A stretch of DNA of 39,163 bases, taken from sequence record OZ035749.1; one strand, 5' to 3'. A program made the translations under genes and the position numbers. The notes below the pieces were generated by a model. It searched no databases and had not been told where the DNA came from. It saw nothing but the letters and a program-made list of their open reading frames with translations. The stretch comes from Kayfunavirus PDP351P4. This document shows positions 854 to 39,163 of this stretch, piece by piece; positions within the stretch are counted from its first letter, which is position 1; each line of letters opens with the position of its first letter.

Positions 854-2613
854 GTAAAGACTTAGTGGCGCGGCAGGCGCTAATGACTACGCGTATGAAG
901 GCAGACTTCGTGTTCTTCCTGTTCGTCCTGTGGAAAGCTCTGTCACTCCCAGTCCCGACTCGCTGTCAGATTGACATGGCGAAGAAACTATCGGCTGGGG
1001 ACAACAGGCGCTTCATCCTACAGGCGTTCCGTGGTATCGGGAAGTCCTTCATTACGTGTGCCTTCGTTGTCTGGAAGCTATGGAACAACCCAGACTTGAA
1101 GTTCATGATTGTGTCGGCCTCAAAGGAACGAGCCGATGCTAACTCCATCTTCATCAAGCGAATCATCGACCTCATGCCTCAGCTTCAGGAACTCAAACCT
1201 AAGCAGGGACAGCGAGATGCGGTTATCAGCTTCGACGTTGGACCAGCCAAGCCAGACCACTCACCTTCGGTTAAGTCCGTTGGTATCACTGGTCAGTTGA
1301 CTGGTAGCCGTGCTGACATCCTGATTGCCGATGACGTGGAGGTTCCGAACAACTCAGCGACTCAGGCTGCACGAGACCGTCTATCAGAGCTTGTGAAAGA
1401 GTTCGACGCTATCCTGAAGCCGGGAGGTACGATCATCTATCTAGGTACTCCTCAGAACGAGATGACCTTGTATCGTGAGCTGGAAGGTCGTGGATATACC
1501 ACTACTATCTGGCCAGCTCGTTATCCACGCGACAGGAAGGACTGGCAGTCTTACGGCGACCGTCTGGCACCGATGCTTCAGGCAGAGCTTGAAGAGGACC
1601 CTGAGGCCTTCTACTGGCGTCCGACCGATGAAGTACGATTCGATGATACGGACCTGAAGGAACGTGAGCTGTCCTATGGTAAAGCTGGCTTCGCTCTACA
1701 GTTCATGCTTAACCCGAACCTGAGTGATGCCGAGAAGTACCCTCTGAAGCTCCGTGACCTTATCGTAGCAGACTTGGACCCAGCATCCAGCCCAATGGTC
1801 TACCAATGGTTGCCAAACCCTCAGAACAAGCGTGAGGACGTTCCTAACGTTGGACTCATGGGTGACTCATACCACACGTATCAGACTGTAGGTTCTGCCT
1901 TCAGTTCGTACACCCAGAAGATTCTGGTCATTGACCCTAGTGGTCGTGGTAAGGATGAAACTGGCTATGCGGTACTATACCAGCTCAACGGCTACATCTT
2001 CGCTATGGAAGTTGGTGGTATGCGCGGTGGTTATGAAGACTCTACTCTGGAAGCTCTAGCTAAGATTGGTCGTAAGTGGAAGGTCAACGAATACGTCATT
2101 GAGGGTAACTTCGGTGATGGTATGTACCTTGAGCTATTCAAGCCTGTAGCGGCCCGTATTCATCCTGCTGCTGTAACTGAAGTGAAGAGTAAGGGTCAGA
2201 AGGAACTCCGCATCTGTGACGTTCTGGAGCCTATCATGGGGTCTCACCGACTTATCGTTAACGCTGCTGCTATCGTCCAAGATTACCAGTCGGCCTCTGA
2301 TAAGGATGGTGTTCGTAACCCTATCTACTCTCTCTTCTACCAGATGACGCGTATCTCTCGTGAACGTGGAGCCTTGGCACACGATGACCGACTTGATGCT
2401 CTGGCTATCGGTGTACAGTTCTTCGTTGAGTCTATGGCTAAGGATGCCAACAAAGGCGAACGTGAAGTCACTGAGGAGTGGCTGGAGGAACAGATGGAGA
2501 ACCCACGGAAAGGCTTCGAGTCCATCCACACTGAGTTCTGGGACAATGGGGTCCGGGTAACCCACGATACGGACGACGAGCCGGGGCTAGGGTCCTACGT
2601 TACGTTCCACTAG
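850..2613 (+). CDS. DNA packaging protein B / large terminase subunit (T7 gp19-like)
   Basis: 587 aa (T7 gp19 about 586); Walker A-like GIGKS near the N-terminus; start overlaps the 18.5 stop. Confidence 0.93.
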
Positions 2614-2707
2614 CTGAATGAATAACTATGGGTGAAAGCTGCATGAATACGCAGTTAGTAACCTATGGTTACTACCAGTCTAACCTACTGTTTTACAAGG
2701 AGTTTGG

Positions 2708-2731
2708 ACTTAACTATCACTATAGGGAAGA
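2708..2731 (+). promoter_or_regulatory. phage RNAP promoter (phiOR-like position, after gene 19)
   Basis: TTAACTATCACTATAGGGAAG matches the 11-copy promoter family in this window. Confidence 0.65.
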
Positions 2732-2909
2732 CCCCCGGTTACTTATAGTATTACTGTAGTGAATATACATATGCAGACTTTATGCAAGACCTTAGGAGGC
2801 AGACTCCGAGTTCTTACCTAAGGCTTGCACCGATGGAAGGAGGTGATATTAATCATAATACCTCCAATACAGATAGTCACCGACCATAGATACAGGAGGT
2901 ATGTAGCAT

Positions 2910-3068
2910 ATGGAAAAGACCAAAGCTGTACTTAAAGCTCTGGCGACCAATCGAGCTACATACAGGTTTCTTGCTGCTGTTCTACTTGCTGCTGGCGTTA
3001 CTGCTGGAAGTCAGTGGGTCAGGTGGGTCGAGACCCTCGTATGTTCTCTGGTGTCTGAGTGTAATTAA
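2910..3068 (+). CDS. gene 19.5-like small membrane protein
   Basis: 52 aa; AGGAGG RBS 8 nt upstream; RATYRFLAAVLLAAG resembles the T7 gp19.5 RVTYRFLVV motif; last gene before the genome end in T7. Confidence 0.6.
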   Translation: MEKTKAVLKALATNRATYRFLAAVLLAAGVTAGSQWVRWVETLVCSLVSECN

Positions 3069-3101
3069 CGCAATCATGGTAACGATTCATGAGCGGAAGA
3101 C

Positions 3102-3145
3102 CTAAGGTCAGTACGTGGATAAAGACTCACTCTACTGACCTTAGC
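3102..3145. other. perfect 12-bp inverted repeat (CTAAGGTCAGTA ... TACTGACCTTAG) forming a hairpin with 20-nt loop in the genome-end region
   Basis: read directly; the two arms are exact reverse complements; function not assigned (terminator, RNA processing or packaging signal). Confidence 0.6.
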
Positions 3146-3497
3146 TACTGTAGTCAAGGACTTTAGGTAACACCTTAATAGAAGCTCACTTAGGGTCATC
3201 CTACTTACTGGTCTATCCTAGTGTCGCCTGACCTACGGTCCTTGACCTACAGTGGCTGTGGCCTACAGCAGTGACGATGAGTTTTGGACCAAAAGTTTGA
3301 GACCACATCTCACAGTTCAAGAACCTCAAGTCTCCCCATAGGCCCTCTTTCAGTCCAGACCAAAGGCCCTACCCCAGTCTATCATAAGGTTGGACCGATG
3401 GTCAATACTTAAGGTCGACGATAGGTCTAGGCTATGGCTGGAGGTCAGGACGATAGGTAGGGACTATTGGTCTTCTTTGAGTCTCTATCTGTATCAG

Positions 3498-3610
3498 ACC
3501 ATAGGTCACAACCATAGGTCACAACCATAAGTCATAACCTACATCTCACAACCATAAGTCATAACCTACAGCCTCAACCATAAGACACCTACAGTCTAAA
3601 CCTACAGTTA
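3498..3610. repeat. tandem array of about 8 degenerate 13-14 bp units (ACCATAGGTCACA / ACCATAAGTCATA / ACCTACAGCCTCA ...) in the genome-end/left-end region
   Basis: read directly; first two units are identical; related ACCTACRG units also at about 3231-3270. Confidence 0.7.
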
Positions 3611-3720
3611 ATAGACACAATGGCTATAGACTTAAGGTCTAAGACGTGTTAGTCAAAGACTATATCCTCTTACACCATGGGGCCGACGATGGCTCAATCA
3701 ATATTATTTCAACTTACCTA

Positions 3721-3750
3721 TTGACTATAGGTCTCGACTATGGCCTAATA
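3721..3750 (+). promoter_or_regulatory. candidate host sigma70 early promoter (weak)
   Basis: TTGACT at 3721 with a poor -10 (CCTAAT/CTAATA) about 17-18 bp downstream. Confidence 0.25.
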
Positions 3751-3860
3751 GCTTCCGTCAACACGACACGGCAACAACCGGATAGTGAAGACGCCGTGTC
3801 ATCCCGGTTAAGTAGACAGCCTGATAAGTCATACGAACAACAGGCAGATGACAGAAGTAG

Positions 3861-3895
3861 TTGACAAGATGTAAGACTTAACGTAGTATGATTCA
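3861..3895 (+). promoter_or_regulatory. candidate host sigma70 early promoter (A-type)
   Basis: TTGACA (3861-3866), 17-bp spacer, TAGTAT (3884-3889); upstream of gene 0.3 where T7 carries A1-A3. Confidence 0.5.
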
Positions 3896-3928
3896 CCAAG
3901 TAGTACAGCAAGCGAGTTAAGAAAGTGA

Positions 3929-3963
3929 TTGACAAGCTGGTTTGACTGTAGTAACTTATACGA
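3929..3963 (+). promoter_or_regulatory. candidate host sigma70 early promoter (A-type, weaker -10)
   Basis: TTGACA (3929-3934), 17-bp spacer, TAACTT (3952-3957). Confidence 0.35.
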
Positions 3964-4080
3964 CAAGCAAGATTAGTGAGTCCCAACACTGAAACGGGAT
4001 AGCACGGCGACGACAGCCAATGCGAATGCTCTTTAACAATTTGGATAAACTCTTAATGTGCGCCGATAGCGACTAACTAC

Positions 4081-4110
4081 AGGGTCTTTGAGTCTACATC
4101 TGAAGGCCCT
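4081..4110 (+). promoter_or_regulatory. RNase III-site-like hairpin variant upstream of gene 0.3 (R0.3 position)
   Basis: AGGGTC ... GGCCCT stem with wobble pairing, same architecture as the AAGGTCA/TGGCCTT elements. Confidence 0.35.
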
Positions 4111-4155
4111 GACTGATAGTCACTAACACATACTTAACTTTGAGAGGATATAACT

Positions 4156-4488
4156 ATGGAACGTAACGCTAACGCATACTATGACCTGCTGGCTGCAACC
4201 GTTGAAGCATTTAACGAGCGTATTCAGTGCGACGAAATAGCTGAAGGCGATGACTACTGCGATGCGCTGCATGAAGTCGTAGACGGTCAGGTTCCGCACT
4301 ATTACCACGAGATTTTCACGGTGATGGCTGCGGATGGTATCGACCACGAGTTCGAAGACTCTGGGCTGATGCCTGAGACCACGGACGTAACGCGTATACT
4401 ACAAGCTCGCATCTATGAGGCACTGTATAACGATGTGTCTAATAGCTCGGATGTAGTTTGGTTTGAGGCTGAAGAGGACTGCGAGTGA
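4156..4488 (+). CDS. ocr: Ocr, anti-restriction DNA-mimic protein (T7 gp0.3-like)
   Basis: 110 aa, acidic; [43 protein letters not shown] aligns closely with remembered T7 Ocr ([43 protein letters not shown]); first early gene. Confidence 0.9.
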   Translation: [110 protein letters not shown]

Positions 4489-36314: not shown

Positions 36315-38804
36315 ATGTCCACGATTACACAATTCCCTTCAGGAAACACTCAGTACAGGATTGAGTTCGACTACCTAGCCAGAACGTTTGTTGTTGTTAC
36401 GCTGGTGAATAGCTCTAACCTTACCCTGAACCGTGTACTGGAAGTTGGTCGAGATTACCGATTCCTTAATCCAACGATGATTGAGATGCTGGTTGACCAA
36501 TCAGGTTTCGACACCGTTCGTATTCACCGTCAGACTGGAACTGACTTAGTGGTAGACTTCAGGAATGGCTCAGTGTTGACAGCTAGTGACCTGACCAATG
36601 CAGAGCTTCAGGCTATCCATATTGCAGAAGAAGGTCGAGACCAAACGGTTGACTTAGCGAAGGAATATGCTGATGCTGCTGGTATCTCTGCTGGCAACGC
36701 TAAGGATAGCGAGGACGAAGTACGACGAATCGCTGCGAATATCAAGGCATCTGGTCAAATTGGCTATATTGCCCGTCGCTCCTTCGAGAAAGGCTTCAAC
36801 GTTACAACATGGAACGAGGCCCTGCTATGGGAAGAGGATGGTGAGTATTACCGCTGGGATGGCACGCTTCCAAAGAACGTTCCTGCTGGTTCAACTCCTG
36901 AATCATCTGGTGGTATTGGGCTGGGTGCGTGGGTTAGTGTTGGTGATGCGACACTTAGAGGGGAAATCTCTTCTAAATATGGATTATCAATTATTGGTGG
37001 GTTTGAATCAATAGATGATATTAGATCATATTCATCAACAGCCAGCTTGCCAAACGGTGCAAGAGCATTCTTGTTTAGTTTTCATGCTGGTAAAAACACT
37101 GGTGGTGGTGTGTTTCAGTGGTACAGCAACGCGACAACATCCGATGACGGTTTCTCTGTTATTAAGCCATCATCTGTTTCTGGGGCGGGCCGGTGGATTA
37201 ACGTTAAGCGTGGCAGGCTAACTCCGGAAGAATGTGGTTGCGTACCTAATGACCCATCATTTGATAACGGTGTACCACTTAATAGATGGGCATCACAACA
37301 GCACTGTATTGGTTCCGTTGGCGTCTTTTATAAAACAACTGCTTTAATACCCTCACCGCCAGCGTATCCGCAGTATATAGACGCTAAGGGTATGCGGCTG
37401 ATGACTACCGTACCTGACGTAAACGGGCTGGAACTCCCCCCTGCTACGTCCAGACGTATCACTATTGAGGGCCTTGAGTCGTTCGGTGACCCATCATTAA
37501 CAGTAACAAATCGTAATAAAGCCAACGGCTTCTATATCGCAGGTAGCCGTGAAGTTACGTTAAAGAATATTCGCTGTGAGGGGTGGAAAAACTCTGGTGT
37601 CTGGTGGTTTGAAGTCAACAATATGACCATAGACGGTTTTATTGGGTGGAGGAATGATTGGGATGGTTCAACGCTATTCTCCTCTGGCGGTGATTTAGTT
37701 GAATGGACTTCGAGCGCCGGGTTGGCGAAATCATGCAGTATAAATAATTTTGCGTGTTTTTCAGACGGCAGCCAGAGCATTTCAGTAAACTCACTTTCTT
37801 TTGGGAGAAACATATTAATTAGCAATGGACGTTGCTTCACGTATGACGCCACAGATTTTACGCCAAAGACTCGTTCAGATATCAAAGCTCGTCACGGAAT
37901 TACGATAGGTTACAGCTCCAATCAGACATATGGTGGGGGAGTCAAAGTCAGCAATGTCATTATCAGAGATAAGGGATGGACTGGTATTTATCGGTCCGGC
38001 GGCCTAGATGGAGCTGTTCGATACCAACCAGCAACAGTCTCTAACGTTTCCGTGTACGATTGCGGTTTTGGTATAAATCAAGACAACATCGGTGCTGGTA
38101 TTCTGTTCGGTGACGTAGTGGACGGAGACATGATCAACAACTGTTATGTGGAAGGATTCGCTAACGCTAATAACGGTGCGTATAAAATTCAGGATTCTGT
38201 AGGTACAGGTAAGCTGACAATAGCTAACTGTGTTGATAAAAGCTCTGCTGGCTACGGGGTGCATATAGCAACAGAGTCGGTTAACGTAATGGTTATTGGG
38301 CACAGAAGCATAGAACCAACCGGAGCAGGTATTTTTCTTGAGGCAAAAGGCGGCGCAACACTATTCCGGTCGCATACTATTGACGGATGCCGTATTGAGC
38401 GTGTGACGGACGGTTACGGAATATTGTTGTCTAACGGCGTACTTAGCGCAAATATTAAAAACAACGAAATCCGTGGTACTTCTACGAACTCCACAACAAA
38501 CTGTGCTATTCGGGTAAACCAAAACGGGCAAAACATAAATATCAGAGGAAATCAGATTTACGGTTTTGCATACGGGTTGTGGTACAATACCTATGTGGAT
38601 ACCACAACAATATTCCCGTGGGGTAACAACCAATTCTTCGGCTGCATTAACGCACACCGTTTCGCAAGGACGACCGGCACCAGCGTAGCCAAGGTAGAAC
38701 CAAACTACTACGATGGAGGAACTACAAACATGTTCTCCAACGGTGGCGTGGGAACGAGTAACGGAACGGAAGAATTTAGAGTTAATGGTGCTCCTGTGAC
38801 CTAA
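36315..38804 (+). CDS. tail fiber / tailspike: T7 gp17-like N-terminal adaptor fused to a large beta-helix (depolymerase-like) C-terminal domain
   Basis: 829 aa (T7 gp17 is 553); the N-terminal roughly 150 aa align with T7 gp17 (F.YLAR.FVVVTL, LV.DF.NGS.L.A.DL, EEGRD); the remainder is unrelated, rich in N/G/S/T with repeated rung-like segments ([38 protein letters not shown]) and a visibly more AT-rich nucleotide composition. Confidence 0.88.
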
Positions 38805-38810
38805 CAATAA

Positions 38811-38836
38811 CCCAGCTTCGGCGGGTTTTGTTTATC
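38811..38836 (+). terminator. candidate intrinsic terminator after gene 17
   Basis: CCCAGC-TTCG-GCGGG hairpin (UUCG-type loop, one bulge) followed by TTTTGTTTAT. Confidence 0.35.
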
Positions 38837-39001
38837 ATCGGAAGGGTATTGAATCGTCGAAGTCCATCGGCGGTTCGTTGTATCCTTGTGGGCTTTGTTG
38901 TTTTGGTGGTTGATGTTGTGGAGGTAGAGGCTAACTACACGCTGACCAACGTATGGTAACAACTCTGGGTCACGGACGACCCGCTTTAAACTGGAGGTTT
39001 T

Positions 39002-39163
39002 ATGATTGAGTTAGACTTCAAGAATGAGGTCCTTAAAGCCTCTCCTATCGTCGGGACCGCTGCGGCTGATGGTGCCAGTCGGTTCTTCTTCGGACTCACA
39101 CTGAACGAATGGTTCTACGTTGCGGCTATCGCGTACACCGTTGTCCAGATTGGTGTGCTAGTC
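39002..39163 (+). CDS. class II holin (T7 gp17.5-like), 5' portion only; the gene runs off the window end
   Basis: 54 codons in window; FFFGLTLNEWFYVAAIAYTVVQIG matches remembered T7 gp17.5 (LFFGLSLNEWFYVAAIAYTVVQIG); GGAGG RBS. Confidence 0.85.
   Translation, partial: MIELDFKNEVLKASPIVGTAAADGASRFFFGLTLNEWFYVAAIAYTVVQIGVLV

Follow-up and report, generated by a model that had tools for sequence, protein, structure and literature searches.

Mosaic gene 17 of Kayfunavirus PDP351P4: a K1F-type anchor with a swapped-in beta-helix module, probably specific for the OgN5/Onovel1 O-antigen

Gene 17 of Kayfunavirus PDP351P4 (phage PDP351_P4; sequence record OZ035749.1) encodes a tailspike and was analysed within the 39,163-nucleotide stretch of DNA hereafter called the window. 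The gene is a mosaic with precise breakpoints: an anchor of the kind found in phage K1F, the type species of Kayfunavirus, is followed by a 617-residue module that folds as a beta-helix and recurs in several types of phage; the productive host range of PDP351_P4 is narrow. We consider it probable (about 0.65) that this swapped-in receptor-binding module targets the Escherichia coli O-antigen OgN5, also called Onovel1.

Domains, breakpoints and composition of gene 17

Sequence comparison shows the window to be the complete genome of a K1F-like Kayfunavirus, in which gene 17 lies after gene 16 and before the holin gene 17.5, the same position and flanks as in K1F. Gene 16 and gene 17 up to codon 212 match K1F at 95.7% DNA identity; in blastn, this homology ends at position 36949 and resumes at 38915, 110 nt beyond the gene 17 stop codon. 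At the breakpoints, the switch from 96% identity to no K1F homology takes place within a few bases. A preliminary description of the window, made from its letters without database searches, had let the foreign part begin at 36950; this coordinate is exact, although the protein boundary falls at residue 212/213 and not near 215. The same description had the foreign DNA end with the gene at 38804, whereas the exchanged DNA extends past the stop codon to 38914.

The roughly 150-residue T7-type N-terminus that had been proposed is confirmed by Pfam, where PF03906 (the T7 tail-fibre N-terminal domain) covers residues 10-114 with 58.5 bits against a cut-off of 25.2, and by a search of PDB sequences, in which the T7 gp17 chain 7boz aligns with residues 6-124 (E 2.9e-17). 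Dividing the protein into this adaptor and a beta-helix was correct but left out a third domain: residues 155-211 match Tail_spike_N (PF18668; 73 bits, cut-off 25), a conserved anchor domain that is not T7-like and that is also matched in PDB sequences by chains of the CBA120 tailspike proteins (TSPs) TSP1/3/4. Adaptor and Tail_spike_N, the latter ending in GAWVSVGDA, make up the anchor in common with K1F (residues 1-212). Residues 1-224 are near-identical to PDB entry 9vvr_A ('Tail spike protein', 843 aa; 435 bits, E 4e-129), and the anchor therefore has a solved structure; past residue 224 there is no similarity to 9vvr_A, which points to another receptor-binding module in that protein.

Downstream of the anchor, the module opens with a conserved segment, xLRxxLxxxxGxSxIGxFxS, seen in an alignment of junctions. 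Its N-terminal sub-domain (residues 213-327) is the sole part of the module with sequence matches to other tailspikes. The beta-helix body that the preliminary description had read from short repeated rungs is borne out by three approaches: Beta_helix (PF13229) matches residues 606-762 with 34 bits, above the curated Pfam cut-off; an AlphaFold2 (AF2) monomer model of the module folds as a beta-helix and not as a fibrous, T7-like distal fibre; and the best Foldseek match of this model is CBA120 TSP2 (E 8e-9, probability 1.00), whose 16-19% identity is the highest of all structural neighbours. Of the two motifs quoted as examples of the rungs, NIKNNEIRG lies at residues 713-721 (38451-38477) and an 11-letter motif at residues 740-750 (38532-38564). 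Model confidence (pLDDT) falls below 50 at module residues 600-617. By analogy with the T7/K1F-type anchor and solved relatives, gp17 is probably a homotrimer.

At the corresponding place, K1F gp17 carries by annotation a K1-capsule endosialidase and a cleaved C-terminal chaperone, whereas PDP351_P4 has an unrelated beta-helix without chaperone. Pfam scans of gp17 matched neither a C-terminal chaperone or autoprotease domain nor an endosialidase domain and, with no K1F gp17 homology after codon 212, the protein does not classify with the K1F-type (GH58) enzymes. When PDB sequences were searched with a profile built from 26 homologs, the matches covered the anchors and a short LRxDL..IG opening segment; the beta-helix stayed unmatched, and none of its residues could be aligned with a characterised active site; a single-sequence search of the same collection gave no match beyond residue 277; and none of the 25 PHROGs listed among 39 family matches reaches past residue ~314, so the helix has no functional family there. 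As the helix has no sequence match among solved structures, hydrolase, lyase and adhesin are indistinguishable here. Seven acidic residues are invariant, E306, D313 and D317 just upstream of the helix and D448, D450, D460 and D484 within it (with an NDWD motif at 447-450); from their conservation, they are candidate catalytic residues.

The module is AT-rich and uses AGA and ATA codons, as first described and now confirmed by sliding-window and codon-usage tests. GC content averages 0.503 over the genome but 0.453 over the last 617 codons, a value at the 0.3rd percentile of sliding windows of that length, and third-position GC (GC3) is 0.418 against 0.564 elsewhere. AGA accounts for 10/31 Arg codons (32%) in the module and 41/563 (7.3%) elsewhere (Fisher p 1e-4), ATA for 14/47 Ile codons (30%) and 47/498 (9.4%), respectively (Fisher p 2e-4). 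Asn, Gly and Thr together make up 29.5% of module residues and 17.9% of residues elsewhere (p 1e-11). This composition had been taken as a sign of recent horizontal acquisition. The acquisition stands on comparative data, but not its recency, since the K1F endosialidase module (GC 0.448, GC3 0.378, AGA 13/50, ATA 11/43) and the common anchor are low in GC3 as well; that of the anchor is 0.448 in the window (36315-36950) and 0.453 in K1F (L001:2817-3452), as compared to 0.56 for the other parts of the genome. The exchangeable part of gene 17 thus has low GC and rare codons as a general trait, because the K1F module shows the same anomaly, and composition was ruled out as a clock for recent transfer. 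The whole of gene 17, not the swapped part alone, is compositionally atypical. In AGA/ATA usage the module is close to its alleles in P22-like prophages and in a 42-kb phage (10-12/31 Arg, 14-18/~50 Ile) and unlike an N4-like allele; this match would fit temperate phages with ~45% GC as the donor pool. Besides the module, the lowest GC stretch of the window lies at ~2600-4450 (0.452 over 1.85 kb) and probably corresponds to genome ends and early region.

Features of gene 17 and its 3' flank in the window
Feature	Position	Strand	Basis
Gene 17, tailspike, 829 aa	36315..38804 (including stop codon)	+	ORF list; identical 829-aa protein in protein collection
T7 gp17-type tail-docking adaptor, residues ~1-150	36315..36764	+	PF03906; 7boz match; 96-100% DNA identity to K1F
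Tail_spike_N domain (TSP1/gp66 type), residues 155-211, last anchor domain	36777..36947	+	PF18668; CBA120 TSP1/3/4 chains; K1F; 9vvr_A
Conserved junction block, left crossover of cassette; tight core GGTGCGTGGGTTAGTGTTGGTGATGC at 36924-36949	36881..36949	+	DNA alignment
Exchanged cassette relative to K1F: receptor-binding module and 110 nt of 3' non-coding DNA	36950..38914	+	blastn breakpoints
N-terminal sub-domain of module, residues 213-327	36951..37295	+	AF2 secondary structure; junction alignment of nine carrier architectures
Right-handed parallel beta-helix, residues ~330-787, presumed catalytic body	37302..38675	+	
C-terminal cap, residues 788-829	38676..38801	+	Last 18 residues of low confidence
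GC-rich hairpin (AACCCAGC-TTCG-GCGGGTT) and T-tract, terminator-like	38803..38836	+	Fold; conserved position
Extra 3' flank brought with cassette, right crossover ~38914	38846..38914	+	In window and 42-kb phage L004; absent in PDP351_P3 and K1F

The record is linearised within the class II holin gene 17.5; the usual T7-like map is thus circularly permuted in it, and genes 18 and 19 come first. Joining 39002-39163 to 1-33 restores a translation identical to K1F gp17.5.

Spread of the module and joints of the cassette

When 50,697 phage records were searched with the 617-residue module, full-length matches were limited to PDP351_P3, where the protein is 93% identical, and to ChubbyThor gp1 from an Agtrevirus (54%); Salmonella phage heyday has the first 96 residues of the module in common and no more. 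A large protein collection yielded 36 relatives. In carriers with unrelated N-termini, homology to gp17 starts at residue 211-217. Such carriers comprise 729-aa proteins with the P22 head-binding domain (PF09008), encoded at the P22 tailspike position of P22-like prophages and 84-89% identical to the module; 825-aa proteins of an epsilon15/phiV10-like prophage; an 860-aa protein of an N4-like genome with virion RNA polymerase, located beside a second, Tail_spike_N spike as in phage G7C; a 989-aa protein; and gp1 of the 159-kb ChubbyThor. A 42-kb phage that has ERF and NinX genes encodes a 741-aa protein in which homology starts earlier, within Tail_spike_N. Overall, protein identities of 73-91% to the module are seen behind unrelated anchors in phage genomes that are themselves unrelated. 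A receptor-binding cassette with its own 3' hairpin moves between lytic and temperate phages, in at least six architectures and always cut at the same residue.

The N4-like copy lies on a 77-kb contig (L005:9272-15018), in the first (860 aa) of two adjacent spikes. Its gene is flanked upstream by a small PF26986 Cap_depo gene and downstream by the gene of a 793-aa spike with Tail_spike_N and a WcaM-like part. The arrangement resembles the branched one of G7C, with Tail_spike_N missing from the module-bearing protein.

The joints of the cassette lie at conserved sequences. The junction block is near-invariant across the window, K1F, PDP351_P3 and the unrelated 42-kb phage, and K1F diverges directly after it; at the protein level, the left joint reads GAWVSVGDA | xLR, at the conserved end of Tail_spike_N. 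Across most of 36900-38899, window and 42-kb phage are 77-95% identical per 100-nt bin (three bins 69-73%), and the window's 3' non-coding 100 nt are 77% identical to that phage. Since this non-coding DNA is common to both, the transferred unit consists of module, hairpin and flank. The hairpin was not flagged by a generic terminator scan (its stem contains a mismatch), and its folding energy is not significant alone (z -1.1). The 42-kb phage, PDP351_P3 and the N4-like phage have equivalent hairpins 3' of their own copies of the gene; for this conserved position in four phage types, the window included, we retain it as a terminator-like feature.

Modular tailspikes composed of anchor and receptor-binding domain (RBD), their transfer across genera and the conserved motifs at which they recombine have been described by Pas, Latka, Fieseler and Briers (2023; PMC10408124), who regard both features seen here as conserved motifs and possible hotspots of recombination in the exchange of RBDs. 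The junction block takes the position of their motif 1/2 and the hairpin that of motif 3, matched to the published logos by position and description only. Cassette exchange of this sort is marked by a conserved DNA block where the anchor ends and a terminator-like hairpin 3' of the gene, each recurring across genera; gene 17 shows both. The genera are also the same (Kayfuna-, Lederberg-, Uetake- and Gamaleya-like viruses, and Ackermannviridae). The two data sets differ in that the motifs were not found in prophages in that study, whereas we find the same boundary (residue 212) in P22-like prophage alleles. The RBD subtypes listed there (O2, O8, O16, O18, O22, O26, O45, O77, O78, O103, O104, O111, O145 and O157) do not include OgN5.

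The sister phage PDP351_P3 (39,050 bp, OZ035732.1) was isolated on the same host, E. coli PDP351. Compared to the window, it shows 96-99% identity in the flanking backbone and 79-91% from ~36800 to 38100, the first 1.3 kb of the exchanged region. It leaves K1F at ~36840-36880 and rejoins it right after the hairpin, as against 36949 and 38915 in the window. The eight best matches listed for the 14-24 kb region of the window do not include PDP351_P3. As the simplest reading of these alignments, the two phages may have acquired, or re-acquired, the same type of module independently.

Lysogens, host range and the link to OgN5

Of 5,426 complete E. coli genomes, 3 have a homolog of the module that is detectable at the DNA level. 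The prophages concerned belong to two kinds and lie at argW/yfdC, adjoining dacD/sbmC and near yfgI, in isolates from Korea, Galapagos and France. Between galF and gnd, the first lysogen has an O-antigen cluster with wzx, wzy, gmd-fcl-gmm-manC-manB (GDP-fucose synthesis) and two acetyltransferases, and with no uronic-acid pathway genes inside it. From this gene content, the antigen is predicted to contain L-fucose and O-acetyl groups. The wzx/wzy pair of this strain is found in 62/5,426 genomes, all three lysogens included (hypergeometric p 1.4e-6, or 1.2e-4 if the first genome is counted as defining the set). In silico PCR of the cluster with the OgN5 wzy primers of Iguchi (GGTTTAAGCGACCCGTATCG and CCAATTCCAGCCAGTGATGAG; published product 650 bp) returned an exact 650-bp product. 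The same wzx/wzy genes are present in strain 19-7, reference for the B5/H24RxC clone of sequence type (ST) 410 and for Onovel1 in Ba et al., and in a strain that agrees by name with GDG24A-39-1PT, which PMC12753057 types as Onovel1. Product and reference strains together identify the cluster as OgN5. Conservation of host serogroup across transferred copies, the criterion by which Pas et al. define an RBD subtype, thus holds for OgN5/Onovel1, with 3/3 lysogens against 62/5,426 genomes.

In the epsilon15/phiV10-like prophage of one OgN5 strain, E. coli F138, the gene of the homologous 825-aa tailspike is followed immediately by an acyltransferase gene (L010:10250-11368, minus strand). The latter is a candidate O-antigen-modifying gene (seroconversion or superinfection exclusion) acting on the same receptor.

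Both lytic carriers come from an ST410 ONT:H9 host. Strain PDP351, on which PDP351_P4 and PDP351_P3 were isolated, is ST410, ONT:H9, with R1 core and no capsule type listed, while K types are listed for other hosts (Gaborieau et al., bioRxiv 10.1101/2023.11.22.567924). ST410 has been reported with many O-types (PMC12753057), those strains that are not O8 being often Onovel1 with H9; in the B5/H24RxC clone, the O-antigen switched from O8 to Onovel1, that is, OgN5 (Ba et al. 2024). OgN5 is likewise common in enterotoxigenic E. coli (ETEC; Iguchi 2017). From ST410, ONT and H9, we infer that PDP351 has the OgN5 antigen. That Onovel1 can serve as phage receptor in ST410 was demonstrated genetically with the Agtrevirus P-32M-3-Y, which lyses 24/25 Onovel1 strains and for which 13/14 resistant mutants map to the O-antigen locus, with no TSP assigned (PMC12753057). 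In the literature naming OgN5 or Onovel1, we found no defined phage protein tied to that antigen.

In a panel of ~400 strains scored by minimal lytic concentration (MLC), where 3 denotes individual plaques at the lowest multiplicity of infection, PDP351_P4 scores 3 on PDP351 only and 0-2 on all else; the other ST410 R1-core strains of the panel, O8:H9 and O8:H27, both score 0 (10.1101/2023.11.22.567924). A lineage-specific receptor of ST410 was ruled out by these two unlysed strains. Altogether, lysogens and host range suggest that the receptor of PDP351_P4 is the OgN5 O-antigen. Most of the strains lysed weakly by the phage are also struck by many other Autographiviridae. Its score is 2 on BL21 and 1-2 on 21 further strains (Supplementary Table 3, Gaborieau et al.). 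The pattern on BL21 suggests a secondary receptor reachable without O-antigen, or lysis from without at high titre. As a B strain, BL21 is presumably rough, without O-antigen.

PDP351_P3 (L003) shows MLC 1-2 on many strains that are strongly lysed by the K1-capsule phages T145_P2 and AL505_P3 (for example ECOR-24, -36, -61, -62, IAI06, IAI35, IAI39, IAI46, IAI65, IAI69 and LF7074); PDP351_P4 scores 0 there. Despite this weak lysis of K1-phage hosts, PDP351_P3 gp17 has the same beta-helix module and no endosialidase.

Alternative readings, known spikes and significance

According to the reading that we favour, module and 3' hairpin entered a K1F-like backbone by recombination, replacing a module of the endosialidase type. 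Of the two crossovers, the left one falls within the conserved terminal part of Tail_spike_N (GAWVSVGDA|xLR), the right one ~110 nt past the stop codon. The trimeric spike would dock on the tail via the T7-type adaptor; its beta-helix would bind OgN5 O-antigen chains and probably cleave them as an endoglycosidase, an activity suggested by analogy with the spikes of P22, HK620 and CBA120. Cleavage would take the virion through the lipopolysaccharide (LPS) layer to the outer membrane, and productive infection would be limited to OgN5 strains. We lean slightly towards extending this to the whole module family, down to ~53% identity and on six anchors, as an OgN5/Onovel1-specific depolymerase that the two sister phages captured independently. 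Several points weigh against the reading. The panel offers one productive host (n=1 positive, 2 matched negatives), and weak lysis (MLC 1-2) on 22 other strains, BL21 among them, means that O-antigen is not strictly required for some lysis at high titre. The OgN5 status of PDP351 derives from ST410, ONT and H9, two of the lysogens have 100% identical wzx/wzy and may be related strains, and the structure of the OgN5 repeat unit was not found in the literature searched. Finally, the catalytic residues are unmapped, identity to the best solved relatives does not exceed 19%, and the profile search stops short of the beta-helix.

Were the module a depolymerase for capsule or another exopolysaccharide (K antigen, colanic acid or enterobacterial common antigen), its link to OgN5 would be an indirect one through lineage. 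P22-like and epsilon15-like tailspikes (P22, HK620, Sf6, epsilon15) classically target O-antigens, which counts against such a substrate. So do the lack of a listed capsule type for PDP351, the failure to infect two ST410 strains of other O-type, the three lysogens, which share their O-locus but took up different prophages at different sites, and the genetic evidence for Onovel1 as phage receptor in ST410 (PMC12753057); we regard an exopolysaccharide target as distinctly unlikely. The module might instead bind OgN5 without being an endoglycosidase; it would then be a non-catalytic adhesin, a lyase, or an esterase for the O-acetyl groups of the OgN5 repeat. The fold is common to hydrolases, lyases, epimerases and adhesins such as PfbA, the catalytic residues are unassigned, and acetylation matters, given the two O-acetyltransferases of the OgN5 cluster and the acyltransferase beside a homologous prophage spike. 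Yet the closest structural neighbour with sequence support is the O157-specific spike CBA120 TSP2, and the invariant acidic residues (NDWD 447-450, D460, D484) cluster in the helix, as expected for a glycosidase. The lyase version is further disfavoured by the OgN5 cluster having no uronic-acid pathway genes, and the esterase version by the O-antigen deacetylase of G7C, which is of SGNH fold and not a beta-helix. Such a non-endoglycosidase role seems to us unlikely.

Practically no credence is left for a gene that evolved in place, with a composition shift caused by the amino-acid content of a beta-helix. First- and second-position GC in the module (0.455 and 0.486, against 0.578 and 0.402 elsewhere) do reflect its richness in Asn, Gly, Ser and Ile, and the unrelated K1F module is similar in composition. 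However, this account is already refuted by comparative data: the breakpoints with K1F are sharp, modules of 73-91% identity stand behind unrelated anchors in unrelated phages, the synonymous signal (GC3, AGA/ATA) matches that of temperate-phage alleles, and the sister phages differ in their crossovers on both sides.

The relation to spikes of known specificity is one of partial likeness. CBA120 TSP2 (ORF211; PDB 6w4q, 5w6p) is, like the proposed OgN5 spike, a beta-helix directed at an O-antigen (O157) with small N-terminal domains ahead of it; similarity is remote, and serogroup and anchor are different. To the P22, Sf6 and HK620 type the module is connected by its prophage alleles (84-89%), which are fused to the P22 head-binding domain; the window protein itself is without that domain, and its helix has no detectable sequence similarity to theirs. 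Among Agtreviruses, P-32M-3-Y has Onovel1 of ST410 as its receptor and ChubbyThor gp1 is 54% identical over all 617 residues, but these are ~160-kb myoviruses with four branched TSPs, and ChubbyThor was isolated on Shigella boydii.

Gene 17 is in itself a case of ordinary, well-described phage mosaicism. The phenomenon, the junction motifs and the phage genome have been published; we did not find the RBD family, its spread over six anchors or the link to OgN5 in the literature, and the probable specificity is the new part. OgN5/Onovel1 is untypeable by classical sera, comes second in frequency among the O-genotypes of a global ETEC collection, and has been acquired by the globally spreading, hypervirulent, carbapenem-resistant ST410 clone B5/H24RxC (Ba 2024). 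If the proposed specificity is true, the module would be the first molecular reagent for OgN5, an antigen missed by classical serotyping. As a defined 617-aa module that binds or cleaves OgN5, it could serve in typing, in host-range engineering on phage or tailocin scaffolds, and in cocktails against the ST410 clone.

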